Positions 1 through 53,907 of a DNA stretch of 64,000 nucleotides are shown piece after piece. Source of the DNA: an uncultured Candidatus Binatia bacterium. GTDB taxonomy: Bacteria > Desulfobacterota > Binatia > Bin18. The position numbers and the translations under genes are program-made. The notes beneath the pieces were generated by a model. That model was not told the DNA's origin. It was given only the letters and a program-made list of their open reading frames with translations, and did no database searches. The stretch covers positions 390,135 through 454,134 of the forward strand of contig CBDBEO010000001.1 in NCBI GenBank assembly GCA_965204455.1, in the 5' to 3' direction. How positions within the stretch are numbered: the stretch's first letter is position 1; every line of letters begins with the position of its first letter.

Positions 1-182
1 CCCCCGGGGGGTAGTCATGAGGGAGAGGTTCCAGTATTTTTACTATCATTCAATAGAAAATACTCGTATTTCCACTAGTCTATGAGAGGTAATCCTCGTA
101 TTTCTGCTGAACCCCCCTCGACAAGACGAAAGGCAGGTTAAAAATGCTTTCCGCTTTCCGCTCCCCGCACGGAGGGCTGGCG

Positions 183-1005
183 ATGAGTCCGCGCTTGTGT
201 GCCACCCTCATCGCCCTGCTCGGCAGCTTCAGCCTGGTACCTGCGGCCTGGGCCGCGCCCACCTTTGGCGGTGCCAGCATTGACCCCGTCGTCTTCTACA
301 CGTCCCCTGGGACCGGGACGGGTTGCACGGCGCAGCCCGCCAACTCCGTCACCCTGCCCACCGCCACCGGCACGGGGACCATCACCTACGCCATCGCCAG
401 TCTGCCCACCGGCGTCTCCCTCTCCGGCAACACCCTGACCGGCGCTCCCGCGACGATCTCCGCCCAGGCCGCCACGACCTACACCTATACCGCCACCGAC
501 GCCGGCGACAGCCAGACGGCCTCCCTCACCTTCACCCTTGAAGTGGTGAGCGAACGGGCGATATTGCAGGCCCTCTTCAACAACACCGATGGCCCCAACT
601 GGACGACCAAAACCGGCGGCTGGGCCAATCCCATCACCGCCACCTGTCTGAACGCCTTGCACGGCGTCGAGGTCGGGGACACCCAGAATGCGCTCAAGTT
701 CGAGGGGCGGGTGATCAACATACGCCTCACTGGCAACAACCTGAGCGGGTCGATTCCCCCCGAGATCGGCAACCTGAGCCAGCTGGTCCACCTCGAACTC
801 GACGGCAACAACCTGAGCGGGTCGATTCTCCCCGAGATCGGCAACCTGAGCCTGCTGGCCCACCTCTGGCTCGACGGCAACGACCTGAGCGGGTCGATTC
901 CCCCCGAGATCGGCAACCTGACCAAGCTGCAAATCCTCAAGCTCGACGGCAACGAGCTGAGCGGGTCGATTCCCCCCGAGATCGGCAGCCTGACCAAGCT
1001 GCTAG
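183..1005 (+). pseudogene. 5' portion of a large secreted LRR-domain protein gene. It carries a signal peptide, an Ig-like He_PIG-type region, an LRRNT_2-like cap and the first four plant-specific 24-aa LRRs. An IS insertion interrupts it at 1005/1006.
   Basis: GGAGGG RBS 6 nt upstream of the ATG at 183. Signal peptide MSPRLCATLIALLGSFSLVPAAWA. Cap ERAILQALFNNTDGPNW...CLNALHGVEV...GRVINIRLTGNNLSGSIPPEIGNL. The frame is restored exactly when 1006-1863 is removed. Confidence 0.75.
712..1005 (+). repeat. Coding 72-bp tandem repeats (LRR units, LxxLxLxxNxLSGSIPPEIGNLxx). First block, upstream of the IS.
   Basis: Near-identical gagcgggtcgattccccccgagatcggcaacctga units repeated in frame. Confidence 0.8.
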
Positions 1006-1014
1006 GCTCAGGAC

Positions 1015-1359
1015 TCATAACCAGAAGAGCACGGTAGCGGCCAGGCAGATCGCACTGAAGAAGGTATGGGCGCAACGGTCATAGCGAGTGGCAATGCGGC
1101 GCCAGTCCTTGAGGCGGCCAAACATGCGTTCGATAAGGTTGCGTTGCTTGTACAGTTCCGGGTCGTAGGCAATCGGTTTCTTGCGGTGGACGCGCCCAGG
1201 GATGCAGGGGCTGATGCCCCGTTGCAGCAGGGCGGCCCGGAACCGGTCACTGTCGTAGCCCTTATCCGCCAAGAGGGTCTCCGCCGCGGGCAGCGTCGGC
1301 AGCAGGCGCTCGGCTCCCCGAATGTCGCTGACTTGGCCCGCCGTGAGCAGGAACGTCAC
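1015..1359 (-). CDS. IS5-family transposase OrfB (DDE catalytic C-terminal part).
   Basis: LTAGQVSD...LLADKGYDSD...NLIERMFGRLKDWRRIATRYDR is the canonical DDE_Tnp_1 C-terminus. It overlaps orfA with ATGA and lies in the -1 frame. Confidence 0.8.
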   Translation of the reverse strand: MTFLLTAGQVSDIRGAERLLPTLPAAETLLADKGYDSDRFRAALLQRGISPCIPGRVHRKKPIAYDPELYKQRNLIERMFGRLKDWRRIATRYDRCAHTFFSAICLAATVLFWL

Positions 1360-1835
1360 CGGCCGCCCCGCTCCATCGCAGACGGCGTGGAGCTTGGAGG
1401 TGAGGCCGCCGCGGGTCCGCCCGATAGCCCGAGGAAGTGCCCTTTTTTTTGCAGGCTGGCTGCCGTGCGATGGGCGGTGAGATGCGTGGTGTCAATCATG
1501 ACGAGGCCACTCTCGTCGCGTTCGGCGGCCAGCGCCGTGAACAGGCGGGCGAACACGCCCGCCTTGCTCCAGCGCACGAAGCGGTTATAGAGCGTCTTGT
1601 ATGGGCCATAGCAAGCCGGCGCATCGCGCCACATCAAGCCGTTGCGCAGCACATGCAGAATCCCGGAGATCACGCGCCGGTCATCGACCCGCGGGACGCC
1701 CCGGGGCTTGTTGGGCAAAAGCGGTTGTAAGCGGGCAAATTGGGCCTCGGTGAGCCACAGATGAGAACCGGCCATGACCGCACTCCTATGTAGAGAGAGA
1801 CTGGAAATCCCACACTCATCGCCATACACTACCAA
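1356..1835 (-). CDS. IS5-family transposase OrfA (N-terminal DNA-binding part). A -1 frameshift at the A8G run (plus-strand T8 at 1443-1450) would fuse it to OrfB.
   Basis: LTEAQFARLQPLLP...RRVISGILHVLRNGLMWRD...YNRFVRWSKAGVF is typical of IS427/IS5 OrfA. In the -1 frame after the A-run the sequence reads KGALPRAIGRTRGGLTSKLHAVCDGAGRPVTFLLTAGQVSD. Confidence 0.8.
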   Translation of the reverse strand: MVVYGDECGISSLSLHRSAVMAGSHLWLTEAQFARLQPLLPNKPRGVPRVDDRRVISGILHVLRNGLMWRDAPACYGPYKTLYNRFVRWSKAGVFARLFTALAAERDESGLVMIDTTHLTAHRTAASLQKKGHFLGLSGGPAAASPPSSTPSAMERGGR

Positions 1836-1863
1836 CAGACTTATTTATAGGTCCTGAGCCTAG

Positions 1864-2520
1864 CCCTCTATCTTGGCAGCAACGAGTTGAGCGGGTCGAT
1901 TCCCCCCGAGATCGGCAACCTGACCGATCTGACCGACCTCCGGCTCAACGACAACAAGCTGACCGGGTCGATTCCCCCCGGGATCGGCAGCCTGAGCCAG
2001 CTGGGCATCCTCCATCTTCACAGCAACGAGCTGAGCGGGTCGATTCCCCCCGGGATCGGCAGCCTGAGCCAGATGTCATTCCTCTATCTTTACGACAACC
2101 AACTCAGCGGGCAGATTCCCCCCGGGATCGGCAGCCTGACCGAGCTGCGACACCTCGTTCTCAGAAACAACCAACTCAGCGGCTCCATTCCCGCCGGGAT
2201 CGGCAACCTGACCAACCTGACCGTCCTCTTGCTCGACGGCAACAACCTGAGCGGGTCGATTCCCACCGGGATCGGCAGCCTGACCAAGCTGACCCTCCTC
2301 TTTCTCCACCGTAACCAACTGACCGGGCCGATTCCCCCCGAGATCGGCAGCCTGTCCAGCCTGCAACAACTCGTTCTCTTCAACAACCAACTCAGTGGGT
2401 CGATTCCCCCCGAGATCGGCAGCCTGTCCAGCCTGCTCTACCTCTATCTCCACGACAACCAGCTCAGCGGGGAGATTCCCTCTCAGATCGGCGGCCTGAC
2501 CCGCCTGACCCGCCTCACCC
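1864..2520 (+). repeat. Coding 72-bp tandem LRR repeats (second block, ~9 units).
   Basis: Repeated ctcagcgggtcgattccccccgagatcggcagcctg units. Confidence 0.8.
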
Positions 2521-4697
2521 TGCACAGAAACGCCGGTCTGTACAACTATCCCGGCGGCCTGGCCACCAAGAGCGACCTGCACCTGCTCGTCCCCGGTACT
2601 GGCACGGCGCAGTGTCTGCCCACCATGATGGGCGGCACCGACTGCACCATTCCGACCAAGGTGGATCAACTGCGCCTGCGCTTCAGCTACGACCGGATCG
2701 AGGCCTCCTGGAAGCCGCATCCGGCCGGCTCCACCCCGAGCGGCTATGCGCTGGAATATAGCCCCGACGCCTCCACCTGGACCTCCGTGACGCTCAGCCC
2801 CGCCACGGCCACCACGGCCACCATCTCCGATTTGACCCCCGGCCAGACCTACAATGTGCGGGTGCGGACGACTGGCACCCCCACCACCCCTTGGTTGTGG
2901 TCCGAAGTCCGCCTGCCCCTTCTCAGTGATTACCCCGACACGGTGTCGCTGACGGCCAGCACGCGGCGGCCGGCGGAGGGCGCCACGGTGCGGGTGACGG
3001 CGACCTTGAGTACGCCTGCGGCGGCCGGCGGCGTGACGGTGGAGTTCCAGGCCTACCCCACGGGCGCCATAGGCGACCACCCGGCGTATCATGGGGTAAA
3101 CAGTGGCGACTACGTACTGTTGGACGCAGGAGCAGGAGCATGTGGCGACGGACGACAACAACATAGATTTAACCACGCATCAGGTGGCGTCACCGAGGAG
3201 ATCGAGATCCCCGAGGGCGCGCGGCAGGCCACAACGACGCTGTGCGTGTGGGACGACGCCGAGCCTGAGGGCAACGAGACGTTCGCGGTCACGGTCAGCG
3301 GTTCCTGGCCGCTGACCGACTACCCGGAGCTCGTATTCACCATCCCGGCCAACGACGGCGGCACGCCTAGCCCGCCTACCGGCGGTCCCACCGGCGGCGG
3401 TCCCACCGGCGGTGGCGGCGGCGGCACCCGCACCCCGCCCGACCAGCATGGCGACACCCCGGACGAGGCCACCGGCCTCAACCCCCGCGGGTATGCCACC
3501 GGCAGCATCTCCCGCACGATTGCCGCCCGCCTCCAGAGCCGCACCGACATCGACTATTTTACCCTTGACCTGCCCTACGCCGGCGTGCTGATCGCCCACA
3601 CCACCGGGGGCGACACCACCGGCCGCCTGTACCAAGCCCAAGCTGAGGGTACGCCCGTCCTCATTGCCACCGATACCGACAGTGGCAGCGGCGCCAACTT
3701 CCGGCTCGGCGTGGCCGTTGAACCCGGCACCTACTACCTGGCCGTGTCGGCCGGGGCCAGCTTCGGGGACTACCGGCTGCTGGTGGACTACACCCCGGCC
3801 TTTGTCGAGAATCCCGCCCCCAATGCGCCCCAGAGCGGCCTCGGCGTGCTGTCCGGCTGGGTGTGCGACGCCGACACGGTCGAGATCGAACTGGTCCCGG
3901 AAAGCGGCGAGACCCAGATGTGGGTGCCGGCCACGGGCACGAGTCGGGCCGACACCGCCGGGGTGTGTGGCGCGGACACCACCGACACCGGCTACGGCCT
4001 GCTCTACAACTGGAACCTGCTCGGCGACGGCGCCCACACCGTACGGGTCCGTATCAACGAGGTGGTGTTGGCCGAGCGGGCCATCACCGTCACCACCCTC
4101 GGCGCTCACCCCGAGCAGGAGTACCGCCGGGGGCTGTGGGCCACCTCGGAACTCCCCGACTTCCCGGACGCGGGTCAGACGACCACGCTGCGCTGGGAGG
4201 AAGCCTTGCAGAACTTCGTCATCGCCAGCGGGGAGGGCAGCGACGGCGGCGAACAACTGACGCCCGAGCAGGCGCGGTTGGAGAATCCCGCGCCGGGCTC
4301 GTTCCAGAGCGGCCTGGGCGTCATCTCCGGCTGGGTGTGCGAGGCCGAGACGGTCGAGGTCGTGTTTGAGCTGGAGGGCACGGACGCCCCCCTGACCTTC
4401 GAGGCCGGCGCGGGCACCGAGCGGGCCGACACGGCCGACCAATGCGGCGACGCCGACAATGGCTTTGGCTTGCTGTTCAACTGGAACCTGCTGGGCGACG
4501 GCACCCATACCGTGCGGGCTTTGGCCGACGGCGAGGAGTTCGCCCACAGCACCGTAACGGTGACGACGCTGGGCGAGGAGATCGCGCGCGGCTTGCGCCA
4601 GACGCACGAGATTGCGGACTTCCCGGCGGCGGGCCAGACCACGACCGTGGAGTGGCGGGAGGCGCAGCAGAATTTCGTGATTACGGCGGTAGAGTAG
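1864..4697 (+). pseudogene. 3' portion of the IS-disrupted LRR protein gene. It encodes ~9 further plant-type LRRs, an FN3 domain, a Calx-beta domain, a Gly/Pro-rich linker, a PPC (pre-peptidase C-terminal) domain and two tandem ~130-aa Cys-containing domains of unknown function.
   Basis: LALYLGSNELSGSIPPEIGN continues the LRR register. FN3: WKPHPAGSTPSGYALEYSPDASTWTSV...TPGQTYNVRVRT. Calx-beta: DYVLLDAG...EEIEIPEGARQATTTLCVWDDAEPEGNETFAVTVSG. PPC: DIDYFTLDL...EPGTYYLAVSAGASFGDYRLLVDY. Duplicated domain: ENPAP..QSGLGV(L/I)SGWVC...RADTA..CG.AD..(Y/F)GLL(Y/F)NWNLLGDG.HTVR. Confidence 0.75.
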
Positions 4698-4787
4698 CGG
4701 CCGGCCCGGCCGCGCCCCGCCCCCTGCGGCGCGGGACTGCTCCCTCGGGGGGGAGGGTGGTGTCTCACTCTGCCATGCTCTTTTCGA

Positions 4788-4809
4788 GGCGGGCGCCGTG
4801 GCGCCCGCC
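4788..4809 (+). terminator. GC-rich hairpin (ggcgggcgcc/ggcgcccgcc) about 90 nt downstream of the LRR gene stop. Putative intrinsic terminator without a clear U-tract.
   Basis: A perfect 10-bp inverted repeat seen in the sequence. Confidence 0.3.
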
Positions 4810-4921
4810 CTCGGAGCGGGCCGCCGGGGATGAGACAGGCAAGCATTTTCAGACTGAGACACTACCGCCGGGACAGCTCCGCAATAGCGGGGACGGTCCG
4901 AATCTGGTACAGCATGGGGCC

Positions 4922-5641
4922 ATGCAGGTGATCGGACATCGGGGGGCGGCGGCTTTGGCGCCTGAAAATACCTGGGCCAGCTTTGACCTGGCGGTGTCTC
5001 TGGGGGTGGACGCGATTGAAACCGATGTGCGGGCGACCAGCGACGGAGAATTGATCCTGCTGCACGATGAACGGCTGGCCCGGACTACCAACGGTCAGGG
5101 CTTCGCGCGCGAGACGCCGTGGGCGACGATCAAGGAGCTGGATGCCGGAGGATGGTTTGGCGCCGAGTTTCGGGGCGCCCGGGTGCCGCTGTTCGGCGAG
5201 ACTCTGCTTCGCTACGGCGGGCGGATTCCGCTGATCATCGAGGTCAAGCAACTCGACCTTGAGGTCCGTGTCCTGGATTTGGTCCGGGAATATGGCCTGC
5301 TGCACGCAGTCGCTTTTACCTCGTTCTATTTCCCGGTCGTGCAGAATCTCAAGACGCTGGCGCCGGAGGCCAAGGTAGGATTTCTGGCCTCTGACGTGCA
5401 CGAGCAGACAGTCGAGCGGGTCATTACGGCCGGGCTCGACCAGTTCTGTCCTCCGGCCAAGGCCATCTCGCCCGACCGGGTCCGTGCCTGGCAAGCCCTG
5501 GGCCTGGACATCCGGGCCTGGGGGGTAGGCGACCCCGAGCTGATGCGGGTCGCAATGGCGGCCGGGGTGGACGGGATGACCGTCGATTTTCCCCACCTGC
5601 TGCTGGAAGCCCTGGGCCGGCGTCCCCCTCGGGGGGACTGA
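4922..5641 (+). CDS. ugpQ: Glycerophosphodiester phosphodiesterase (GDPD family).
   Basis: MQVIGHRGAAALAPENTWASFDLAVSLGVDAIETDVRATSDGELILLHDERLARTTNG. Length of 240 aa is typical. The ORF-track start at 4442 is an upstream open-frame extension. Confidence 0.85.
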   Translation: MQVIGHRGAAALAPENTWASFDLAVSLGVDAIETDVRATSDGELILLHDERLARTTNGQGFARETPWATIKELDAGGWFGAEFRGARVPLFGETLLRYGGRIPLIIEVKQLDLEVRVLDLVREYGLLHAVAFTSFYFPVVQNLKTLAPEAKVGFLASDVHEQTVERVITAGLDQFCPPAKAISPDRVRAWQALGLDIRAWGVGDPELMRVAMAAGVDGMTVDFPHLLLEALGRRPPRGD

Positions 5642-5673
5642 GACGAATCGGGTGGCAGAGACCCTGCCGGTGA

Positions 5674-6306
5674 CTATGAGGGCGAGGCGGCGAGCTGTTT
5701 CAGCTTGCTCTCGATGCTCTGCACCAGGTTTTCATACGACGATTTGTTGATGATCCGGTTGAACTGAGTCCGATAGTTGCGGACCATGCTGACGTTCTCG
5801 ATCACCACATCGTAGATCAACCAGCGGCCTTCGACCAGGTGCAAACGGTAGCTCAGCGAGAAGGTTTGGTTCAGCGAAGGGGCCAGAATCCGGGAATCAA
5901 CCTCGGCATAGCTGCCGTCAATATGCTCGCGGTCAAAGAAAAATTCGGTATCCTCGCGGTAACGGTCTAAAGTGCTGCTATATGTTTTTTCTATTAAGTC
6001 TGTAAAAAGTCTGATGAATTCCTGTCGCTGCTCCTCTGTCCGATCTCGCCAGTGGACCCCCAGAGTGCGTTTGGCGATTTCCCGAGAGTCAAACTGGGGG
6101 AGGGCAACCTCGCGGACTTTCTGGATGCGGACCTGGCTCTGATCCGGGTCGTGATAGGCCGGATCCTGGAGGATGGCGATGATCTTGTGCATCGTCGTCT
6201 GGATGACCGTGAGGGGCGAGTCTGTGGCTGAGACCAAGCCGGGAAAGGCCAGGCACAGCAGTCCAATGCCGATACTCTTGACCAGTGTTCTCTGCAAGGT
6301 ATTCAC
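5674..6306 (-). CDS. mlaC: Phospholipid-binding periplasmic protein MlaC (Ttg2D/toluene-tolerance family).
   Basis: Signal peptide, then HKIIAILQDP...QVRIQKVREVALPQFDSREIAKRTLGVHWRDRTEEQRQEFIRLFTDLIEKTYSSTLDRY. Last gene of the mla operon. Confidence 0.85.
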   Translation of the reverse strand: MNTLQRTLVKSIGIGLLCLAFPGLVSATDSPLTVIQTTMHKIIAILQDPAYHDPDQSQVRIQKVREVALPQFDSREIAKRTLGVHWRDRTEEQRQEFIRLFTDLIEKTYSSTLDRYREDTEFFFDREHIDGSYAEVDSRILAPSLNQTFSLSYRLHLVEGRWLIYDVVIENVSMVRNYRTQFNRIINKSSYENLVQSIESKLKQLAASPS

Positions 6307-6332
6307 CCCAACCCCCTCATTCCCCGCCTCTC

Positions 6333-7106
6333 CTATTCCTTGACGGCGTTGGCTCGCCGCTGTAAGTAGCCGTCCTGAACCGCCCCGTACAGGTCAACCG
6401 AGACCAGCTCAACCTGTTCAAAGAGTTCCAGGTTGAGTGAGCGGGTGTTGACGGCATTGCCGACCGTCTGGCCGCCCTGAATGGCAAGTACGTCCAGGGC
6501 TGCCAGCAGATAGTTCATCGGATTCATCGCGCTGTCAACGGCAAAACCAAAGGTGTCGCGAACCGTTGAGGGACCGTAGAAGGGCAGCACCAGATACGGG
6601 CCGGCCGAAATGCCGTAGTGGCCCAGGGTCTGGCCGAAGTCTTCGTCGCTCGGTCGCCAGCCGAACAGACTGTCGGCGACATCAAAAAAGCCGATCCCGC
6701 CCAGGATGGTATTGACGGCAAAGCGGCCGATTTCGCGTCCGGCCCCGTCAATTTTTCCCTGGAGTACGCTGTTCACAACGCGGGGCAGCACCCCCAGATT
6801 TTTGAAGAACCGGTCAACGCCGTGCTGGCCCGGCTCCGGAACCACTTCGGCGTAGCCGGTCGCCACCGGTCGCAAGAGATATTCATCGAGCTTGAGGTTG
6901 AAGCTGAACATGGGCTGGTTGAACGACTCCCACGGGTCATACGGCGTGCGCAGGTCTGCCCCTTCGGCTTCATAGGGGTCTTGGGCAGGATTCTGAGCCT
7001 GAACAGGACTTGTGCTCAAGAAACCGATCAGGAGCGCGGCGGTGATGAATACAACAGACACTCTGTCCCTCCTGCGTGTGGTGCTAATCAGCGTAGTACG
7101 GTGCAT
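6333..7106 (-). CDS. mlaA: Outer-membrane lipoprotein MlaA (VacJ family).
   Basis: DPWESFNQPMFSFNLKLDEYLLRPVATGYAEVVPEPGQHGVDRFFKNLGVLPRVVNSVLQGKIDGAGREIGRFAVNTILGGIGFFDVA. The internal ATG at 7106 follows the signal-peptide context. Confidence 0.85.
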   Translation of the reverse strand: MHRTTLISTTRRRDRVSVVFITAALLIGFLSTSPVQAQNPAQDPYEAEGADLRTPYDPWESFNQPMFSFNLKLDEYLLRPVATGYAEVVPEPGQHGVDRFFKNLGVLPRVVNSVLQGKIDGAGREIGRFAVNTILGGIGFFDVADSLFGWRPSDEDFGQTLGHYGISAGPYLVLPFYGPSTVRDTFGFAVDSAMNPMNYLLAALDVLAIQGGQTVGNAVNTRSLNLELFEQVELVSVDLYGAVQDGYLQRRANAVKE

Positions 7107-7113
7107 GGCTTCC

Positions 7114-7617
7114 CTAATCGAGACCGAGATTGAACGGATCGTCTGTCGCAGCGCCGTCGGTCTGCTCGGCCGCGTTGAGGTTGCCGAACAAGACCTGACC
7201 GACGGTGTCGAGGATGTCGGTGGCAGACTCGGTGTGCCGAATCCGACCGCCGGGACTGAGGGTTTCGTCTGCCGGCCCAATCTCAATGTCGATGAAGCGT
7301 TCGCCTATCAGGCCGGCCGTTTTAATTGCCGCCCGGCTGTCCTGGGGCAGCTGGATATCGGGCTGAATGCTCAGCGTTGCCCGGGCCTGTGTCAGCGTGT
7401 CGGTCAGGGCCACAGACTCAACCCGCCCGATTTCCACCCCGGCCACCTCGACCCGGGCGCCGCTCTGCAAGCCGCCGGCGTCGGAGAACTCGGCCGTGAG
7501 CCGGTAGTGCTGGGTGCCGGCAAAGCTGATCTGACCGAACTGCAGGGACAGATAGACCAGACCGCCCAGCACCAGCACGACCAGCCAACCGACCACGAGT
7601 TCTGAGTCAAGTTTCAT
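7114..7617 (-). CDS. mlaD: MCE-domain periplasmic protein MlaD.
   Basis: MKLDSELVVGWLVVLVLGGLVYLSLQ followed by an MCE domain (GTQHYRLTAEFSDAGGLQSGARVEVAGVEIGRV). The 387-aa ORF in the track is an out-of-frame extension. The real start at 7617 overlaps the mlaF stop with ATGA. Confidence 0.85.
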   Translation of the reverse strand: MKLDSELVVGWLVVLVLGGLVYLSLQFGQISFAGTQHYRLTAEFSDAGGLQSGARVEVAGVEIGRVESVALTDTLTQARATLSIQPDIQLPQDSRAAIKTAGLIGERFIDIEIGPADETLSPGGRIRHTESATDILDTVGQVLFGNLNAAEQTDGAATDDPFNLGLD

Positions 7618-7618
7618 C

Positions 7619-8365
7619 CTAATGCGCCTCAATCGGCCCCTGGGTCTGGCCGGTGATAAACTGTTGGACAACGGGGTCGGTCGAGGCTTGCAGCTCTTCG
7701 GGAGTGCCGGCCGCCACAACAGAACCCTGATGCAGCATAGCGATATGTGTGGCCAGTGAAAAGACCTCCGGGATTTCATGGCTGACCACGACCGCAGTAA
7801 AGTTGAGCAGGCCGTGCAAGTCAAGGATGAGCTGGTGGATCGTGTTGACCCGAATGGGGTCGAGGCCGGTGGTCGGCTCGTCGAACAGCATGATTTCGGG
7901 GTCGGTCGCCAGCGCCCGGGCCAGCGCCGCCCGCTTGAGCATGCCGCCCGACAGCTCGGACGGAAATTTGGCATCCACGCCCGACAGGCCGACCTGGGCC
8001 AGGCGCTGATGCACTTTGTCGCTGATGGCTGCTTCTGACAGGCGGGTTTTTTCACGCAGCGGAAACGCGACATTGTCGTACACCGACAACGAGTCAAACA
8101 GAGCGCCGCCCTGGAACAGCATGCTGAAACGATCCCGCATCCGGTTGAGTGCCCGGCCGCGCAGGGCGCTGACCTCGACATCGTCAACCCACACCTGTCC
8201 GCGATCCGGTCGCAGCAGGCCGATAATGTGCTTGAGCAGGCAGCTTTTGCCCGTCCCGCTGCTGCCCACGACAACATAGATCGTCCCGGTCGGGATCTCC
8301 AGATTGATCCCCCGCAACACGTGCTGGGAACCGAAGGATTTGTGCAGGTCGTGAATCCGAATCAT
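7619..8365 (-). CDS. mlaF: ABC transporter ATP-binding protein MlaF.
   Basis: Walker A GSSGTGKS, ABC signature LSGGMLKRAALARAL, Walker B IMLFDEPTTGLD. Confidence 0.9.
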   Translation of the reverse strand: MIRIHDLHKSFGSQHVLRGINLEIPTGTIYVVVGSSGTGKSCLLKHIIGLLRPDRGQVWVDDVEVSALRGRALNRMRDRFSMLFQGGALFDSLSVYDNVAFPLREKTRLSEAAISDKVHQRLAQVGLSGVDAKFPSELSGGMLKRAALARALATDPEIMLFDEPTTGLDPIRVNTIHQLILDLHGLLNFTAVVVSHEIPEVFSLATHIAMLHQGSVVAAGTPEELQASTDPVVQQFITGQTQGPIEAH

Positions 8366-8375
8366 AGGTCTCCGC

Positions 8376-9149
8376 TCAGAACAGCAGTGAGCCGAGGAGA
8401 TAGTCCCAGACCAGGATGAGCACCGAGCACATCACCACGGCCTGGGTCGTGGCCAGGCTCACCCCCTCCGCCCCGCGGGCGGCATAAAAGCCTTTGAAAC
8501 AACACACCCAGGCCACAATAGCCCCGAATGAGAACGATTTATATATGCCGGTCCACACGTCGTGCGAGGTCACGGCGCTGGCCATCTGCGAGAAATAGCT
8601 GCCCACGCTGACCCCCAGCAGCTGAACGCCGACCACATAGCCGCCGTAGATGCCGACCACGGTGAAAACGCTGCTCAGGATGGGAAAGGCGATCAGCGAG
8701 GCCAGCAGAATGGGCACGACCAGGTATTGGATGGGGTGAATGGCCATCACCTCCAGGGCGTCGATCTGCTCGGTAATACGCATGATGCCCAGCTCGGCGG
8801 TCAGGGCCGAGCCGGCGCGGGCGGTAATCATCAGCGACGACAGAACCGGACCCAGCTCAAGAATGAGCGCCAGGCCGACCATCGGGCCGAGCGCCGCCTC
8901 GCCGCCAAAGCGACGCAGCGCGATATAGCCCTGCAGGGCGATGACCATGCCGGTGAAGGCGCCGGTGAAGATAATCAGCACCAGCGAGCGGGCGCCGATG
9001 AAGTACAGACGCCGCAGCAGCGGCGTGAGGCGCAGCGGGGGGACGAACACGAGACCCAGGGCGGAGCCCAGGAAGAGGCCCATGCGGCCCATTTCGCGCA
9101 GCGTTTCAAGCGACCGACGCCCGCAGGCACGCACGACGGGGGTGAACAT
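8376..9149 (-). CDS. mlaE: ABC transporter permease MlaE.
   Basis: MlaE-type TM permease (LGIMRITEQIDALEVMAIHPIQYLVVPILLASLIAFP...). The start at 9149 has an AGGAG RBS. Confidence 0.85.
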   Translation of the reverse strand: MFTPVVRACGRRSLETLREMGRMGLFLGSALGLVFVPPLRLTPLLRRLYFIGARSLVLIIFTGAFTGMVIALQGYIALRRFGGEAALGPMVGLALILELGPVLSSLMITARAGSALTAELGIMRITEQIDALEVMAIHPIQYLVVPILLASLIAFPILSSVFTVVGIYGGYVVGVQLLGVSVGSYFSQMASAVTSHDVWTGIYKSFSFGAIVAWVCCFKGFYAARGAEGVSLATTQAVVMCSVLILVWDYLLGSLLF

Positions 9150-9322
9150 CCAGGCTCCTTTCTGCCGCGACTGCCCCGCACTCGGCCGGAGAGCGATCTG
9201 TCCGGACGGCAGACCGCACACAGCGGCGAAACCCCTAGCATACCCCCCCCTTTTCCTCAAGAGAGTGAACGGCCCGGGATCGCTGGCCGGGGAGTTGAAT
9301 ATCTTGTCAAAGCGCGCTAACA

Positions 9323-9340
9323 GGACAGCTGATCCTGTCC
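9323..9340 (+). promoter_or_regulatory. Perfect 18-bp palindrome GGACAGCTGATCCTGTCC in the mlaE/DHH divergent intergenic region. Candidate operator.
   Basis: Seen in the sequence ~30 nt upstream of the DHH gene RBS. TTGAAT and TTGTCA hexamers lie just upstream. Confidence 0.3.
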
Positions 9341-9372
9341 GGTCGTGCGCCGGACGACGAGGAGGGAACGCC

Positions 9373-10503
9373 ATGGCCGAGACAGCCGAAGCGGTGAGAC
9401 CGGCTCAAGAAGAGCCCCCATTGCGGATCATCAACCCGCAGGAGGCGGACGGGACAAAATGGGCGCAGCTGCGTACCACCTTGAGTCGCCACCAGGGAGA
9501 CAAGCTGCTGCTCATCCTGACCGGCTACCCCGACCCCGACAATATCGCCTCAGGTCTGGCCCACCAGTTTTTGGCCGGCGAATTTGAAATCGAGACCACC
9601 CTGTTGTGTTTTCACGAGGTCAGCCACCAGGAAAACCGGGCGCTGGTCAAACGCCTGGAGATCAACCTCGTGCTGTATGACGAGACCTTCGATCTGGAAC
9701 CCTACGATGTGTACGCCTTTGTCGATACCCAAAAGACGGACACGCCGATCTCGGATCGGCTGGAGGGCAAAACCTTTGTGTCCTTTGTGGACCATCATAA
9801 GCGGCTCGGGGAGGTTGCGGCCGAGTTTGTCGATATCCGCGAGGATGTCGGCTCGACCTGTGCCATCTATGCCGAATACCTGCGGACCCAATATCCCCAC
9901 GGCCTCAACCCGGGCGAAACCGATCAGGTCCGTCTGGCCACGGCGCTGATGCACGGGATCCGCTCCGATACCATGGCCCTGCTTGAGGCAACACGCCTGG
10001 AGTTTGAAGCCGCCGCCTATCTGTGGCCGTGTGTCGATCAGGCTCTGCTCAAAAAGATTGCCGATCAGTCCTTGACCCCGGTGGTGATGGATATGATCCA
10101 GAAGGCACTGGAGAACAAGCAGGTTTTTGACAGCCTGCTGCTGACCGACGTGGGCTTTGTCCGCTCCGAATACCGCGACGGCATCCCGCAGGTGGCCGAG
10201 TTTTTGTTGCGGCGCGAGGGCACCGACACGGTCCTGGTCTTTGGCATTGTTGACGGCAAAACCGTGGACGGCTCGCTGCGGACCCGCAGCGATACGATCT
10301 CCCCGGATATGTTTCTCAAGAAAGCCTTTGGCGCGGACGAGTACAAAAAGAGCTACTACGGCGGGGGCAATATCAAGAATAAGGGCGGCTTTCAGATCCC
10401 CCTCGGCTTTCTGGCCCAAACGGCCGACCGGGACGCTTTGTACACTATGGCCTGTGGGGTGATCCACGAGCGCTTCGTGGAGGCGATCGGCCGCAAAGAG
10501 TAG
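9373..10503 (+). CDS. DHH-family phosphoesterase (NrnA-like oligoribonuclease/pAp-phosphatase type).
   Basis: [10 protein letters not shown] (DHH motif), plus [20 protein letters not shown] and a DHHA1-like C-terminus ([17 protein letters not shown]). GGAGGGA RBS. Confidence 0.75.
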
Positions 10504-10547: not shown

Positions 10548-12500
<1,953 letters not shown>

Positions 12501-12521
12501 GCAGCCCTGGGCGACAGACAC

Positions 12522-13973
12522 ATGGCGTTGCATTTCCATAACACCCTGACCGGCAGGGACGAGGAGTTCATCCCCCTGACCGCCGGCAAAGTCGGCATGT
12601 ATGTGTGCGGGGTAACGGTCTATGACCGCTCGCACGTCGGCCATGCCCGAGCCCTGGTGACCTTTGATGTCATCTACCGCTATCTGCGCTTTCTGGGCTA
12701 CGAAGTCCGCTTTGTGCGCAACTTTACCGATGTGGATGACAAGATCATCAGCCGGGCCAACGAGCGCGGCATCTCGGCTCAGGAGCTGTCCGAGACCTAT
12801 ATCAGCGAGTTCGGCCAGGACATGCGGGCGCTGGGCTGTTTGCCGCCGAGCGTTGAGCCCCGGGCCACGCAGCATATTCCCGAGATGATCGACCTGATTC
12901 GGGACCTGGAGAACAAGGGCCTGGCCTATGCGGTCGGGAGCGATGTGTATTATGCGGTTGAGCGCTTTGCCGCCTACGGCAAGCTGTCGCACCGCCAGCT
13001 CGAAGACATGCTGGCCGGCGCCCGGGTCGAGGTCGATACGCGCAAACGCCACGCCCTGGATTTTGCCCTGTGGAAGGCCAGCAAGCCCGGCGAACCCGAG
13101 TGGGACAGCCCCTGGGGCAAGGGCCGGCCCGGCTGGCATATTGAGTGCTCGGCCATGAGCAGCCGCTATCTGGGCCAGCCGTTCGATATTCACGGCGGGG
13201 GGGCGGATCTCATCTTTCCCCATCATGAGAATGAGATCGCACAGTCCGAAGGCGCAAAAGACTGCCCCTTTGCGCGCTACTGGCTGCACAACGGCATGGT
13301 CACCGTTGAGCACGAAAAGATGTCGAAGTCGCTGGGCAACTTCCTGACCATCGGCCAGGTGCTGGAAGCCCGCGCGGCCGAGGTCTTGCGGGTGGTGTTG
13401 TTATCGACCCAGTACCGTATGCCGCTTGACTTCTCGGACCAGAAGCTGGACGAGGCTGAAAAGAGCCTGCGCCGGGTGTACCAGACCCTGGCCCGCCTCG
13501 ACGAGGCGCTCGGCCCGGCTGCCGGGCACGAGCCGGACCATCCGCGTTCTACCGACTCTCCGGTTCTGGGCCGCTTTCAGGACGCCATGGATGACGACTG
13601 CAACACGCCTCGGGCGCTGGGCGTGGTGTTTGAGACGGTCCGGGAGGCCAACCGTCGGCTCGACGCCGGGCAGCTCGACAGCCTGCTTCAGCTTCGCCAG
13701 GACCTGAACACCATCGGCGGGGTACTGGGGATGTTGCAGGAGGCGCCGGCCGACTTTTTACGGCGGGTCCGGCAAGAAGGGCTGGCCGGCAGCGGCCTGA
13801 GCCCGCAGGCGATTGAGCAGCTGATCGCCGACCGGGCTGCAGCCCGCAAAGCCAGAGATTTCAGCACCGCCGACGCGATCCGCGATCAGCTCCAGGCTCA
13901 GGGGATTGTGCTCAAGGATTCCCCGACCGGGACGACCTGGACCGTTGAGTCCGGTCCTAGCGGCCGCTCCTGA
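12522..13973 (+). CDS. cysS: Cysteinyl-tRNA synthetase.
   Basis: HVGHARA (HIGH), KMSKSLGN, and the zinc-binding motifs CGVTVYD / HIECSAM. Confidence 0.95.
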   Translation: MALHFHNTLTGRDEEFIPLTAGKVGMYVCGVTVYDRSHVGHARALVTFDVIYRYLRFLGYEVRFVRNFTDVDDKIISRANERGISAQELSETYISEFGQDMRALGCLPPSVEPRATQHIPEMIDLIRDLENKGLAYAVGSDVYYAVERFAAYGKLSHRQLEDMLAGARVEVDTRKRHALDFALWKASKPGEPEWDSPWGKGRPGWHIECSAMSSRYLGQPFDIHGGGADLIFPHHENEIAQSEGAKDCPFARYWLHNGMVTVEHEKMSKSLGNFLTIGQVLEARAAEVLRVVLLSTQYRMPLDFSDQKLDEAEKSLRRVYQTLARLDEALGPAAGHEPDHPRSTDSPVLGRFQDAMDDDCNTPRALGVVFETVREANRRLDAGQLDSLLQLRQDLNTIGGVLGMLQEAPADFLRRVRQEGLAGSGLSPQAIEQLIADRAAARKARDFSTADAIRDQLQAQGIVLKDSPTGTTWTVESGPSGRS

Positions 13974-15282
13974 TCAGATAGTTGCGGGAAAAAATCGACG
14001 CATTATTGCTGTCGATATCCTCGTTGAAATACCACTCGGTCTGCCACTCCGCAGGTGGGCTGTGGACGGCCGGAGCCTCAAAGGTCGTGGCGTGGGGAGC
14101 CTGCATATCGACCATCACCGCCTGGGGCATGAAGGCCCATTCGTCGCTGTAGTTGTAGCGGGCGCCCGCAATCGGGTTGACGGGATAGGCGTCGTGGGGC
14201 TTGGTGGTGTAGGCGATGCTGCGCACGAAGACCTTCCACAGCTCGCCCTGCAGGTCGTAGATTTCCTGGATCAGCGGGGCATAGAACTCCTGGTCGACGT
14301 ACAGTATTCGCTTGGAGTAGGTATAGCGTCCGGCATAGCCGACCGGGATGGCCTCGACGACCCACACCCGCCGTTTCTCCCACGGCACGCAGGGCAGGGC
14401 GGCCAGGATGCCCCGATTCTCGTTCTGGGCTGCGCACCAGGCCGACGGGTCGCCGTACTTGTCGCTATGCACGACCGCCAGGATGTCCTTGTCGGCCAGC
14501 ACCCGGAAGCTCCAGAAGCTGAGCTTGGCATTAAAGCCCCACCACGAGTCCAGATCGACATCCGTCCGCCACAGCGGCGTGCTGCGATCAACGATGCTGA
14601 CCCGGTGCACGCGGCGCGTCTCGGGGATGTAGGCGTAGGTGTCGTCGAGCGCGTCGGGCGCCTGGTAGCGGAAGGACAGGATGGAGGTGCCCTTGTGGTC
14701 GTTGGGCAGAAAGGCGGGACCGATCAGATTGGTGTGGCTGACGTTCCGGGCGTGGGGGATGACCGGTTTGGGGTCGCTGTACAGGCGACCGGTCCACATC
14801 AGACGCCGCCACGGATAGGAGAAGGTGCGTTCCAGCTCGCCGCTGGCGCTCACCGTCTGGGTTGTCGAGTCGGTGCCGAAGTTGTCGATGCTGAACGGCG
14901 GATGTTCCTGGTTCCACATGATCCGAAAGCCGGCCAAAGGATCGTTGAGGTCAATGGACGGAAAGGGGCAGCCGGCCACATAGTTGAGCAGCTGCCGTCC
15001 GTCGTCGGACAGGCTGACCTGGCTGGCGAATTTCTCGGTGGCTTCTTCGTAGGCGGTGGGCCAGGTCACCCGTCTGGTGGCAATGATCCGCATCGGCATG
15101 CCCTGCTCCAGCATCCAGCGGGTTGACGGGGTGAGGAGGGTTTCGGCCTGTGCGACCGTGTCTATGGTGAGGGTCTCGCCGGCAGCAACCTCGGCCCCGC
15201 ACGGGCTGGCCGCTCCCACCAGCCACAGGCTGAGCAGCCCGACGAGTATGGTCCATGACTCCGCCCCTGATCTCTTTCGCAT
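13957..15282 (-). CDS. DUF1329-family periplasmic protein (LolA-like fold, outer-membrane lipoprotein-sorting-related).
   Basis: Own signal peptide MRKRSGAESWTILVGLLSLWLVGAASPC after a GGAG RBS. DUF1329-like length (441 aa) and a W/Y-rich pattern. Distinct from the upstream YciI-like open frame. Confidence 0.6.
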   Translation of the reverse strand: MRKRSGAESWTILVGLLSLWLVGAASPCGAEVAAGETLTIDTVAQAETLLTPSTRWMLEQGMPMRIIATRRVTWPTAYEEATEKFASQVSLSDDGRQLLNYVAGCPFPSIDLNDPLAGFRIMWNQEHPPFSIDNFGTDSTTQTVSASGELERTFSYPWRRLMWTGRLYSDPKPVIPHARNVSHTNLIGPAFLPNDHKGTSILSFRYQAPDALDDTYAYIPETRRVHRVSIVDRSTPLWRTDVDLDSWWGFNAKLSFWSFRVLADKDILAVVHSDKYGDPSAWCAAQNENRGILAALPCVPWEKRRVWVVEAIPVGYAGRYTYSKRILYVDQEFYAPLIQEIYDLQGELWKVFVRSIAYTTKPHDAYPVNPIAGARYNYSDEWAFMPQAVMVDMQAPHATTFEAPAVHSPPAEWQTEWYFNEDIDSNNASIFSRNYLIRSGR

Positions 15283-15349
15283 CTCGACTCCTCTGGTCGT
15301 TGTGGAAGGAGGTCTTCCACGGAACCGCATCTCTTCCTGCTTCCCCCGT

Positions 15350-15375
15350 CCGCCATCATCCGAATCGGATGGCGG
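15350..15375 (-). promoter_or_regulatory. Stable hairpin (CCGCCATC...GATGGCGG with an inner ATCCGA/TCGGAT) between the YciI-like ORF and the DUF1329 gene.
   Basis: Inverted repeat seen in the sequence. Role unknown (terminator, attenuator or processing site). Confidence 0.3.
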
Positions 15376-15448
15376 ACAGCCTGCGGTTTCACAGGCTCTT
15401 GCTACGAAACGCGGCGCTCCGAGTCCCGCTCGCATCACGCGCGGGAGA

Positions 15449-15759
15449 CTAGGCGGGACGCCCCGTCCGCCAGTCCCACGGGCGCTGACCGGCACCTGAC
15501 AGTCGGCGAGCATATCCGCCTTGCTGAGAGGATGGTCCGCGACAAAAGCGCGCACTGCCTCAAGTGAAGGCGCTTCGACCACTATGAGAGAGCCGTTGAT
15601 GGTCTCTCCGGTGTCGGTCAGCGTCGGGCCGGCATGATGAAGGCTGACATCGGGATGAGCGGGGTGAGCGTGCAGATAGGCGCGGATGGTGTCCACCATA
15701 TCGATTCGCGTCTGTCCCGCGCCTGGTTTGTCGGTTATGAAAATCACGAAATACATCAA
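15449..15759 (-). CDS. YciI-like (YCII-related domain) protein. The annotated frame has no stop before the DUF1329 gene. A +1 frame gives ...QRPWDWRTGRPA* ending at 15449, suggesting a frameshift or indel.
   Basis: MMYFVIFITDKPGAGQTRIDMV...LHHAGPTLTDTGETINGSLIVVEAPSLEAVRAFVADHP matches the YciI family. The family's typical C-terminal RPW appears only after a 1-nt frame change. Confidence 0.55.
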
Positions 15760-15806
15760 CGTGTCCTCCTGTGTTGAGCAGCAAGCCTGGTGAAGCCGTG
15801 CCCGCC

Positions 15807-17585: not shown

Positions 17586-17952
17586 GCCATCCCTCTTGTG
17601 TTCCAGCGGACTGAGCGGCCCTTGCCGGCCGGTGGTGCTGAATCGGACCCGGCGCGGAGGAATGTAAGGCGAGGCACATCGCCTCCGGGCGATACGGGCT
17701 GGGAGCTTAGCACCGGGTTTGTGCCCTTTCAACGGTCGCTTCGGGCGGTTGGCGCTGATCTGGGCGGACAAGGTGTGGACGGGGGCGGCTTGTCACTGTG
17801 TCACGTGGGCGCGCTGCCATGTCCGGTGCGCGCTGCGCTTGCCCGTGACCGCTGAAACCTCTATGTATCGCGCCATAACCCAGCCGATGCTCAAACGGTC
17901 GAGACCACCCAAAATGGGCCAGGACGATTCACAAATCTTAGACAGGGAATGG

Positions 17953-48207: not shown

Positions 48208-48373
48208 GAGCGTCGTTGTGACTGGTAGTGCGACGCCGTGACCGGCATCGCGCATTGACACGCGAATCGGCCTTGCCTAGACTTCGGGGCGGTGGAGTCC
48301 TGCCCCCGGCTGTCTGGCCGGCGGCAAACCACTGTCTTGGCACAACACCACACTTCGAGGATGGAGCAGGCTC

Positions 48374-53311: not shown

Positions 53312-53511
53312 GAGAGCCTCCGTATCCGGGCGGCGTGTCCTTCCGCCTCGGTTCTGGTCGAGGAGATACCAGAAACCGGGTCTTCTTGGAACCGAGCCGT
53401 CTGAGAATCGGGCCGTCTGAGAATCGGGTCCTCTTGGCAAACCGCCGTCCGAGCGCTATGGACAGTAGGGAGCCCTGGCGGACAGATGTTCTCTGAACGA
53501 CGGAGGGGGAT

Positions 53512-53835: not shown

Positions 53836-53907
53836 TCCTGCGGCCGCCCACCAGGACGGTCGCAGAGAACACAGCTTCCCGGGCCAGGCCCGCAGAAGGA
53901 GCGGAGA

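Follow-up and report, generated by a model that had tools for sequence, protein, structure and literature searches.

The window, a 64,000-nucleotide stretch of DNA from an uncultured Binatia bacterium, contains a gene that is split by an insertion sequence (IS) and whose two halves rejoin into one reading frame. We think it rather likely that the gene encoded a Sec-exported, multi-domain 'eukaryotic-like' surface adhesin, recently inactivated, from the eukaryotic-like protein (ELP) repertoire of sponge symbionts. The N-terminal part would comprise a signal peptide, a He_PIG Ig-like domain, a helical cap, 13 to 14 plant-specific (PS)-type leucine-rich repeats (LRRs) and a C-cap with a Cys pair. 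In the C-terminal part, fibronectin type III (FN3) and unassigned beta domains would be followed by a Gly/Pro linker, a PPC/CBD-like sandwich and a tandem Ig-like pair. The LRR solenoid would be the ligand-recognition surface, with FN3 and the linker as spacers; the PPC-like domain and the tandem pair may form a shared C-terminal cassette for tethering or matrix binding. An extracellular binding role is probable for this LRR protein, as is the ligand- or cell-surface-binding role proposed in the first-pass annotation. An intact IS5-family element, inserted at CTAG in LRR5, would account for the inactivation.

Restored reading frame

Joining 183-1005 to 1864-4697 gave 3,657 nt, a multiple of 3 with 0 internal stops, encoding 1,218 aa. 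The ORF of >1200 aa expected after removal of the IS and one CTAG copy was thus recovered; 'giant', as the protein was first called, overstates this length. The product was aligned with an intact metagenomic homologue of 1,159 aa (P0002) in one HSP at 63.6% identity, spanning aa 26-1218 of the restored product and 2-1159 of P0002, and also with P0003 (49%) and P0006 (67%). Because the HSP with P0002 is single and ungapped at the junction, the open frame across the join is, on this alignment, genuine and not a chance opening in GC-rich DNA. P0002 is the IS-free relative that had been sought: the halves form one continuous frame there, and the proposal of one gene split by an IS holds, excision restoring the frame and a product collinear with P0002. 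The same domain layout is intact in P0002 (collinear), P0003, P0004 and P0244. The layout is therefore shared and not unique, contrary to the first impression of an architecture that could not be placed in any characterised family.

All features of the gene lie on the plus strand. Its 5' part (183..1005, read from the sequence) encodes aa 1-274 plus one base; the start ATG is at 183, with GGAGGG 6 nt upstream. Mla, AcsA and CysS genes are neighbours in the window and indicate a Gram-negative chromosome; the CysS product shares 70-72% identity with proteins named Candidatus Binatia. The host is a Binatia bacterium and the gene is chromosomal.

C-terminal domains

The first copy of the terminal Ig-like domain (3798..4232, aa 920-1064) carries a conserved Cys pair and an NWN-LGDG-H motif; the second (4272..4697) covers aa 1078-1218 and the stop codon. 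A duplicated, Cys-containing domain of ~130 aa had been noticed before, and is present as two C-terminal copies of ~140 aa. The pair was modelled as two Ig-like sandwiches (pLDDT 93.8, pTM 0.87), and by this model the duplicated domain is a disulfide-containing Ig-like fold. Pfam and NCBIfam models and PDB sequences were searched with the pair and gave no match. The family comprises 2,308 representative (50%-identity) clusters at E<=1e-3. Exactly two copies were present in 131/134 fetched members, usually at the extreme C-terminus or right behind the signal peptide. This widespread, unnamed C-terminal pair is the only little-known part of the protein.

Upstream of the pair, in this product and in 108 fetched proteins, is a beta sandwich like PPC and the collagenase collagen-binding domain (3435..3797, aa 799-919). 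Its Pfam PPC match (E 8e-4, 20.7 bits) is under the gathering threshold of 25.9. The AF2 model (pLDDT about 90) was matched by Foldseek to 1nqj, 1nqd and 5sv5 at TM(target) 0.69-0.73 and 20-23% identity. The predicted fold confirmed a PPC-type domain at TM about 0.7, in line with the initial assignment. It is preceded by a Gly/Pro-rich linker (3357..3434) that holds a 15-bp tandem repeat, evident from the sequence, and by a beta-rich domain without family assignment (2913..3356, aa 625-772; AF2 pLDDT 35-65) found only in four close homologues. A Calx-beta domain had been annotated; Pfam, PDB profile search and hhalign gave no support for one at aa 625-772, and the assignment was dropped. The FN3 domain (2658..2912, aa 540-624) was retained, with a Pfam fn3 match at E 2.4e-8 (34.5 bits vs a cut-off of 25), an AF2 pLDDT of about 90 and Foldseek matches to fibronectin FN3 arrays.

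Among 50 sampled members of the pair family, partner domains were LRR (11), fn3 (9), Calx-beta (4), He_PIG (4), PPC (4), SRCR (3), cadherin (2) and Ldl_recept_b (2). The pair also occurs on Matrixin/BACON/InhA-MAM proteins of Binatia MAGs, and 10/10 loci found in GTDB species-representative genomes were in Binatia MAGs. The lineage thus appears to join the C-terminal cassette to many passengers (LRR, FN3, cadherin, SRCR, LDL-receptor-B, metalloprotease), and on this ground the protein is placed in the sponge-symbiont ELP repertoire. Published work finds Binatota enriched in sponges (PMC9999580, PMC9531527, PMC12648040), and LRR and other eukaryote-like proteins are abundant in sponge symbionts (PMC4850255). 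The only secretion or anchoring signal identified in the restored protein was the Sec signal peptide; we therefore infer surface display, rather than a periplasmic location.

PS-type LRR multi-domain proteins are spread over many marine phyla (Bacteroidota, Chloroflexota, Acidimicrobiia and Halobeggiatoa included). PS-type LRR proteins are also present in many marine bacteria that have no evident sponge link, and the product may accordingly have served adhesion independently of a host. That the product was such a bacterial surface or matrix protein, its 'eukaryotic-like' look being coincidental, is somewhat unlikely: the tandem pair is found on proteases with BACON/MAM domains too, and Pfam describes the PPC domain as typical of proteases that bacteria secrete, but SRCR, cadherin and LDL-receptor class B partners are typical of animal extracellular proteins, and the class in which all ten GTDB loci lie is reported as sponge-enriched (PMC9999580). 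Cell-cell aggregation, biofilm or particle attachment, and scaffolding of a secreted enzyme complex are the host-independent roles that were named.

Leucine-rich repeats and N-terminal region

Repeat register and consensus place LRR 1 to 4 and the first part of LRR5 at 708..1005, and the remainder of LRR5 to LRR13 at 1864..2501. The 13 exact 24-residue repeats run in perfect register over aa 176-487. Next come a degenerate 14th repeat and a C-cap holding a Cys pair (NAGLYNYP...CLPTMMGGTDC; 2502..2657), which are conserved in 10 homologues. The consensus, LxxLxLxxNxLSGSIPPeIGsLt, matches the published PS LRR consensus (PMC2946307). Plant receptor-kinase ectodomains were the best matches among solved structures, GSO1 (phmmer E 2e-180) ahead of MIK2, FLS2 and PEPR1. 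Repeat length, consensus and the best matches in the PDB thus sustained the count of about 13 plant-specific repeats. The accompanying remark, 'not the common bacterial LRR type', is a misleading one: this repeat type was recovered at E<=1e-10 in at least 7,991 database proteins (8,000 candidates scored), and the best 120 of these matches are nearly all bacterial or metagenomic. On these counts, LRRs of the PS type are a very common bacterial feature; their occurrence in bacteria was described in 2013 (Miyashita et al., as cited in PMC9471246).

The repeats are preceded by a cap (549..707, aa 123-175; ERAILQALFNNTDGPNW...TCLNALHGV...GRV), a variant of the common bacterial cap motif DRxALxALYNATDGPNWxxxxNW...WHGV. 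In this clade xxCLxxLxGV stands in place of WxGV and co-occurs with a Cys in the preceding He_PIG domain. The cap had been likened to plant LRRNT_2. A Pfam search with it gave no LRRNT_2 match even at E<=10, a cap-only profile of 36 sequences matched no plant protein in the PDB, and LRRNT_2 was touched by only 5/36 related bacterial caps (best E 0.012); the likeness was not upheld. Before the cap lie a putative Sec signal peptide read by eye from the sequence (MSPRLCATLIALLGSFSLVPAAWA followed by AP; 183..254), with equivalent N-termini in P0003 and P0004, and a He_PIG-type Ig-like domain (255..548, aa 25-122) that had been overlooked. Pfam gave no match to the query's own domain at aa 25-122; the assignment was made through the related P0006 domain (E 3e-33), which scores 31.4 bits for He_PIG vs a cut-off of 24.

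It is improbable that a receptor-like or PGIP-like ectodomain was acquired from plants for interaction with plant or algal partners. Plant LRR-RLK ectodomains do match best among solved structures, plant proteins are among the top database matches (e.g. Eucalyptus, aligned over 26% of the query at 60% identity), and horizontal transfer of PS-LRRs between the two groups, plants and bacteria, is a published proposal (Miyashita et al., 2013, as cited in PMC9471246). Against this, thousands of bacterial proteins with the same repeat type rank above the plant matches, the cap has neither an LRRNT_2 match nor the plant Cys pair, and the restored protein has no TM or kinase domain. The host is Binatia and the GC content of the gene (67%) is close to that of the window (64%). 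The family's fusion partners are metazoan-type modules (SRCR, cadherin, LDL-receptor B, FN3); with the Binatia chromosome, they do not indicate the plant or algal partner first suggested.

Insertion sequence and state of the gene

The IS (1006..1859, minus strand, 854 bp) was identified by its inverted ends and transposase profile matches. It lies between CTAG copies at 1002..1005 and 1860..1863, in the order ...AAGCTG, CTAG, GCTCAGGAC...GTCCTGAGC, CTAG, CCCTC..., and its insertion point falls inside LRR5. The terminal inverted repeats GCTCAGGAC/GTCCTGAGC are perfect over 9-10 bp. Since CTAG is a palindrome, the true target duplication may be 2 to 4 bp. Against the NCBIfam profile of IS5-family transposases (NF033580, 258 positions), two overlapping minus-strand ORFs both exceed the cut-off: OrfA (1356-1835, DUF4096) matches positions 3-112 and OrfB (1015-1359, DDE_Tnp_1_2) positions 142-258. 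A slippery A8 run is present at 1443-1450.

The window was assembled from a metagenome (P0001 lies on a contig of 952,604 bp), mis-joins are frequent at IS copies, and frameshifts in the close homologues P0006 and P0007 could be assembly errors, but a mis-assembled IS in a gene that is intact in the real organism is very improbable, because complete inverted ends, an exact flanking CTAG duplication and perfect restoration of both the frame and the 24-residue register are the marks that true transposition leaves, and not those of a chimeric join.

The gene is dead in this genome. The insertion looks recent, because neither half has other stops or frameshifts. The residual product could be at most an exported N-terminal truncated fragment of 285 aa; the C-terminal ORF (936 aa) has no signal peptide.

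Comparison with known systems

Plant PS-LRR ectodomains (LRR receptor kinases, RLPs, PGIP; GSO1 6s6q, MIK2, FLS2 4mn8, PEPR1) share with the restored protein the 24-residue repeat, the consensus LxxLxLxxNxL(S/T)GxIPxxIGxLxx, an N-cap with a helix, a C-cap with a Cys pair and an extracellular location, predicted here. Unlike them, the restored protein is bacterial (Binatia), has no LRRNT_2 HMM match, lacks the N-cap Cys pair, island domain, TM helix and kinase, and is fused to He_PIG, FN3, PPC-like and novel Ig-like domains. With bacterial PS-type LRR multi-domain surface proteins, thousands of which occur in metagenomes, it shares the repeat type, the cap motif class (ALxALYxxTxGxxW...GV...GRV) and modular fusion to Ig-like, FN3, cadherin and protease domains; it differs in this clade's cap variant and in the cassette of PPC-like domain and tandem pair.

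The PPC-like domain resembles clostridial collagenase collagen-binding/PPC domains (PF04151; ColG s3b 1nqj; B. anthracis 5sv5) in fold, at the TM(target) of 0.69-0.73, and in lying close to the C-terminal end of a secreted protein. It differs in a Pfam score below threshold and in being followed by two more domains instead of the protein end. The IS is like two-ORF frameshifting IS5-family elements (NF033580) in having both ORFs above the family cut-off, a length of ~0.85 kb, short terminal inverted repeats, an A8 slippery run and a CTAG/TA-containing target.

The ELPs of sponge symbionts known to have been studied experimentally are ankyrin-repeat proteins, not LRR proteins; the present product differs from them as an LRR protein. 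It resembles sponge-symbiont ELPs at large (LRR, ankyrin, TPR, FN3, cadherin; PMC4850255) as a predicted exported LRR and FN3 repeat protein, and in coming from a lineage, Binatia, that is reported to be sponge-enriched (PMC9999580), the sponge origin of this genome being putative. It is also like them in that the partners found in its family include SRCR, cadherin and LDLR-B.

Interruption and restoration of the gene

The gene (window 183-4697) was found to be interrupted by an 854-bp insertion sequence (IS) at 1006-1859, flanked on the plus strand by CTAG at 1002-1005 and a second CTAG at 1860-1863. At its two ends the element has perfect inverted repeats (GCTCAGGAC / GTCCTGAGC); on the minus strand it encodes two ORFs that overlap, at 1356-1835 (Pfam DUF4096, E 5e-25) and 1015-1359 (DDE_Tnp_1_2, E 6e-18). 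These scored 118.3 and 123.2 bits against NF033580, the NCBIfam model for IS5-family transposases (cut-off 110), and together covered its profile positions 3-258. A run of eight A residues (1443-1450) lies within the first ORF and upstream of the start of the second, the usual layout for programmed frameshifting in such elements. By transposase model, terminal inverted repeats and target-site duplication alike, the element belongs to the IS5 family. It is present as a single copy, no other being found in the 64-kb window, and it sits in repeat 5 of the leucine-rich repeat (LRR) array.

Excision of the IS and one CTAG joined 183-1005 to 1864-4697 in a stop-free frame of 3,657 nt (1,218 aa), with GGAGGG six bases 5' of the ATG at 183. 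The product was aligned to P0002, an intact 1,159-aa homologue from a metagenome contig, in one HSP (aa 26-1218 to 2-1159, 63.6% identity) that was gapless at the junction and elsewhere differed cleanly by the length of one repeat (24 aa). Because of this single-HSP alignment, the joined frame was taken as a real gene and not a chance ORF of GC-rich DNA. Three further homologues (P0003, P0004 and P0244) share this overall arrangement. The 936-aa fragment downstream of the IS is already a separate database protein (P0001, 100% identical). The first-pass annotation had proposed one gene, split and inactivated by an IS, and had called for an intact IS-free relative. The exact reversal of the insertion and the collinear P0002 bear this out.

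Two of the closest homologues, P0006 and P0007, run into translations identical to alternative-frame ORFs of the window. The out-of-frame identity to this gene (window 199-438, 3412-3591, 3664-4260 and 3863-4369) takes in the P0006 C-terminus and the two ends of P0007, so both proteins were regarded as frameshifted copies. The frameshifts could reflect recurrent gene decay, pseudogenes or indel errors of the assemblies. P0006 also has a mosaic look: its unassigned domain shares 96% identity with the window, and its LRR part is nearer to P0002. Directly upstream of the gene lies a short AT-rich stretch (20-140; 64% GC elsewhere), within which falls the single sigma-70-like promoter match of the first 5 kb (118-145). 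At its locus (L001) the intact P0002 is surrounded by genes of defence systems and mobile elements (1-7000 and 12000-19480): SMODS, bacterial HORMA and AAA ATPase (CBASS-like), BrxR/WYL, a nuclease of PDDEXK type, an N6_N4 methylase and a number of IS fragments. A 420-bp fragment at L001 13060-13477 is 86% identical to the IS of this gene.

Domain composition of the restored protein

A Sec-type signal peptide was predicted by reading of the sequence at aa 1-24, ending in AWA and followed by AP. It precedes an Ig-like domain (aa 25-122) that the first-pass annotation had overlooked. This segment itself gave no Pfam match to He_PIG (PF05345) and was provisionally typed through a homologue: phmmer matched it at E 3e-33 to a domain of P0006, which scores 31.4 bits against He_PIG (threshold 24). 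The N-terminal cap (aa 123-175) leads into the LRR array (aa 176-487), made up of 13 consecutive repeats of exactly 24 residues, after which come a degenerate 14th repeat and a C-x10-C cap. The FN3 domain previously assigned was retained at aa 540-624, since it exceeded the Pfam threshold (PF00041, 34.5 bits against 25) and its AlphaFold2 (AF2) model (pLDDT about 90) gave structural matches to fibronectin. The remainder comprises a segment earlier labelled Calx-beta (aa 625-772), a Gly/Pro linker (aa 773-798), a PPC-like domain (aa 799-919) and two copies of an unnamed Ig-like domain (aa 920-1064 and 1078-1218). Neither a kinase domain nor a transmembrane segment was found in the restored protein by Pfam or sequence reading.

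The Calx-beta label was not supported. Residues 625-772 had no Pfam match at E<=10, Calx-beta (PF03160) included, and a profile of four homologues of the segment retrieved no Calx-beta chain from the PDB. Alignment by hhalign to two Calx-beta-bearing members of the family (P0163 and P0219) gave probabilities of 0.1% and 2.4%, with the motif DDAEPEGNETF alone aligned, so that the likeness comes down to 25 residues at 2.4%. The AF2 model of the segment was poor (pLDDT 35-65, with an unmodelled insertion), and no Calx-beta structure was among the 50 best Foldseek matches listed. The segment occurs in four close homologues only.

The PPC assignment held as a fold and fell short as a profile match. 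The isolated domain scored 20.7 bits (E 8e-4) against PPC (PF04151), below the gathering threshold of 25.9. Its AF2 model (pLDDT about 90) was matched by Foldseek to 1nqj, 1nqd, 4hpk, 2o8o and 5sv5 with TM(target) 0.61-0.73 and 19-23% identity. Superposition on the ColG collagen-binding domain and on a PPC domain of Bacillus anthracis collagenase gave TM(target) 0.69-0.73 at 20-23% identity, and the model predicts a beta sandwich of the PPC/CBD type.

Class of the repeats and of the N-terminal cap

The consensus of the 13 repeats, LxxLxLxxNxLSGSIPPeIGsLt, was compared with that published for plant-specific (PS) LRRs, LxxLxLxxNxL(t/s)GxIPxxLGxLxx (PMC2946307). The repeats belong to the PS class both by this consensus and by their tandem arrangement in units of 23-25 residues. 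In a phmmer search of all PDB sequences, plant receptor ectodomains ranked at the top (GSO1 at E 2e-180, then MIK2, FLS2 and PEPR1), and bacterial Leptospira LRR proteins and SHOC2 ranked far below. The first-pass description of plant-type repeats was thus accurate as to class, but misleading in setting them apart from the common bacterial LRR type. A database search scored 8,000 candidates, at least 7,991 of them at E<=1e-10, and the best 120 matches were almost all bacterial or metagenomic multi-domain proteins with a few plant kinases interspersed. Sources among these 120 included Bacteroidota, Chloroflexota, Acidimicrobiales, Candidatus Poriferisodalis, Halobeggiatoa and Aquimarina. Miyashita et al. 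2013 (cited in PMC9471246) already dealt with bacterial PS-LRRs. Among bacterial LRRs of PS type a plant-like appearance is familiar and widespread. The DNA of the repeats is a tandem array with a 72-bp period (window 732-1001 and 1888-2516), in which matching reaches 89% among the first four copies and 77% among the others, a pattern suggestive of recent duplication within the gene or of concerted evolution.

The cap is a variant of a recurrent bacterial motif, DRxALxALYNATDGPNWxxxxNW...PLxxWHGV...GRV, often present several times per protein. It had been likened to the plant LRRNT_2 cap, and three kinds of test gave this no support. Neither the whole protein nor the isolated cap matched LRRNT_2 (PF08263) in Pfam at E<=10, marginal matches were seen in 5 of 36 related bacterial caps (best E 0.012), and a cap-only profile found no plant protein in the PDB. 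The restored cap holds a single Cys, whereas the plant cap has a conserved Cys pair. In the full-length phmmer alignment to MIK2, W...C...GV was aligned with the plant cap at low posterior support. Distant kinship of bacterial and plant caps is plausible; membership in LRRNT_2 was not demonstrated by these comparisons. Assignment to the plant LRR-RLK/RLP/PGIP ectodomain family was rejected, the protein having no LRRNT_2 match, kinase or transmembrane segment and both its genomic context and the nearby CysS being those of Binatia.

In the clade of the restored protein, CLxxLxGV stands in place of the WxGV tryptophan. All ten fetched proteins with xxCLxxLxGV (P0002-P0004, P0006, P0007, P0014, P0039, P0090, P0109 and P0244) also have, some 110 residues before it, a further Cys within the He_PIG-like domain that precedes the cap. 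The context of this Cys is G-[ST]-x-C in nine; P0007, the exception, has a frameshift at this point, and P0244 has two Cys more. The corresponding residues of the restored protein are Cys48 (window 324-326) and Cys159 (window 657-659). This co-occurrence suggests an inter-domain disulfide that would tie the Ig-like domain to the LRR cap.

The tandem Ig-like pair

The duplicated C-terminal domain is the least known part of the protein. The two tandem copies of an unassigned Cys-containing domain that had been described were both recovered. A word-indexed search with the pair returned 1,612 proteins. When 1.84 billion representatives were scanned exhaustively with HMMER, 2,308 clusters came up at E<=1e-3, and 1,911 remained at E<=1e-10; the family size of about 2,300 is counted in 50%-identity clusters. 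No Pfam annotation covered the pair region in any of the 1,612 proteins, and searches of NCBIfam, PADLOC and PDB sequences with the pair gave no match. Further members were not found in the 64-kb window.

Exactly two domain copies were present in 131 of 134 fetched members, mostly at the protein end. Many other members carry the pair directly after the signal peptide, which is why a role as sorting signal at the C-terminus, in the manner of the T9SS CTD, was rejected. Conserved features are an N-terminal (L)ENPxPxSxQSGxGVxSGWxC with a second Cys about 34 residues later, GFGLLxNWNxLGDGxH, and a C-terminal QNFVI. AF2 modelling from a 105-sequence alignment (pLDDT 93.8, pTM 0.87) gave two beta sandwiches, oriented to each other in a defined way. 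Since 108 fetched proteins have the PPC-like domain ahead of the pair, the conserved cassette is often the PPC-like domain plus the pair.

Partner domains were assigned by Pfam in a sample of 50 members. LRRs were found in 11 and fn3 in nine, followed by Calx-beta, He_PIG and PPC (four each), SRCR (three), cadherin and LDL-receptor class B (two each) and NHL/teneurin (one). In Binatia metagenome-assembled genomes (MAGs), proteins of ~1,020 aa with Matrixin, BACON and InhA-MAM modules end in the pair, so that putative secreted metalloproteases, too, bear it. Two adjacent paralogues of this kind, each with Matrixin, BACON, InhA-like MAM and a terminal pair, lie at 481-3549 and 3796-6855 of L002 (Candidatus Binatia OX638322.1), and similar genes were seen at four other homologue loci (L003, L004, L006 and L007).

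Source organism and genomic surroundings

The gene neighbours, a GlpQ-like phosphodiesterase, MlaC/A/D/E, AcsA and CysS, are Gram-negative housekeeping genes, and the window CysS is 70-72% identical to Candidatus Binatia bacterium proteins. A genome scan for the C-terminal region, in which each GTDB species was represented by a single genome and the patterns came from the query itself, found ten loci, all in Candidatus Binatia MAGs. Binatota/Binatia are documented and enriched in marine sponge microbiomes (PMC9999580, PMC9531527, PMC12648040), and eukaryote-like proteins, LRRs included, are abundant in sponge symbionts (PMC4850255). The isolate name at homologue locus L010 (p16x34bins.64) resembles bin names of an Ircinia sponge study (PMC9531527), a circumstantial likeness. 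Against this background the source bacterium may be sponge-associated.

Other features of the window were recorded. A 774-aa ORF at 53908-56232 (+) matched AAA-type candidate defence proteins in PADLOC (PDC-M37B, E 3e-36; DolB, E 2e-30); an overlapping 855-aa ORF at 53308-55875 (-) had no family match and is probably spurious. A type II N6/N4 DNA methyltransferase is encoded at 41807-43084 (+) (PADLOC MTase_II, E 2e-154; Pfam N6_N4_Mtase). A STAS-MlaE fusion permease at 47044-48261 (-) lies about 38 kb from an Mla-like set at 5674-9374 (-) (MlaC/HpnM-like, MlaA, MlaD and MlaE), so the region holds two Mla-type lipid-transport permeases. The ORF at 48374-50188 (+) matched the class I lysyl-tRNA synthetase family (tRNA-synt_1f, E 4e-89), the less common type among bacteria. 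Rfam returned one tRNA over the window and nothing else.

Interpretation

The evidence best supports a gene, inactivated recently, whose product would have been an exported binding protein of modular build and of the eukaryotic-like-protein type. The predicted signal peptide, disulfide-type Cys pairs and exclusively extracellular-type domains point to a protein outside the cell or at its surface. As in LRR proteins generally, the solenoid is the putative ligand-binding element. The cassette would serve for tethering or matrix binding, as suggested by its fold likeness to collagen-binding domains and by its fusion, at either terminus, to many different passengers. An interaction with a host is suggested by the taxon and the animal-type partner domains. 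A host-independent role in adhesion or in the matrix is plausible, if on the unlikely side. Descent from a plant gene by horizontal transfer, with a plant or algal partner as the first-pass annotation had suggested to be possible, is poorly supported and very doubtful: the repeats resemble those of plant receptors, but base composition, the cap and the abundance of bacterial homologues all lend no support to a recent plant-to-bacterium transfer, and the host is a member of Binatia. That the IS within the gene is an assembly artefact is most improbable, because the target duplication is exact.

For the cassette, a bolder proposal may be made. The PPC-like domain with its pair of disulfide-bonded Ig-like domains may be a dedicated module for tethering to host matrix or cell surface in sponge-associated Binatia and their neighbours. 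The family of ~2,300 clusters, so far undescribed, would then present, within the sponge mesohyl, an exchangeable set of protease modules and of binding modules that are eukaryote-like, with members such as this one silenced by IS or frameshift in a rapid turnover of the repertoire. We put this forward as speculation that is rather unlikely to hold.

The single locus matters little, being one more inactivated LRR-type surface protein of an uncultured bacterium. Precedents exist for bacterial PS-type LRRs, for adhesins of eukaryote-like type in sponge-associated lineages and for gene disruption by IS5-family elements. Of wider interest is the unnamed tandem Ig-like family with its PPC-like companion, which is large, confidently modelled and absent from the domain libraries searched. 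The pair marks modular exported proteins that carry animal-type adhesion domains in Binatia, which makes it well suited for defining a new family and a means of tracing symbiosis factors. The PPC/collagen-binding-like domain beside it suggests that symbionts may bind matrix in the collagen-rich sponge mesohyl. Like the eukaryote-like proteins of sponge symbionts, the restored protein has LRRs and FN3 behind a predicted signal peptide, and the partners of its pair family include SRCR, cadherin and LDL-receptor class B domains.
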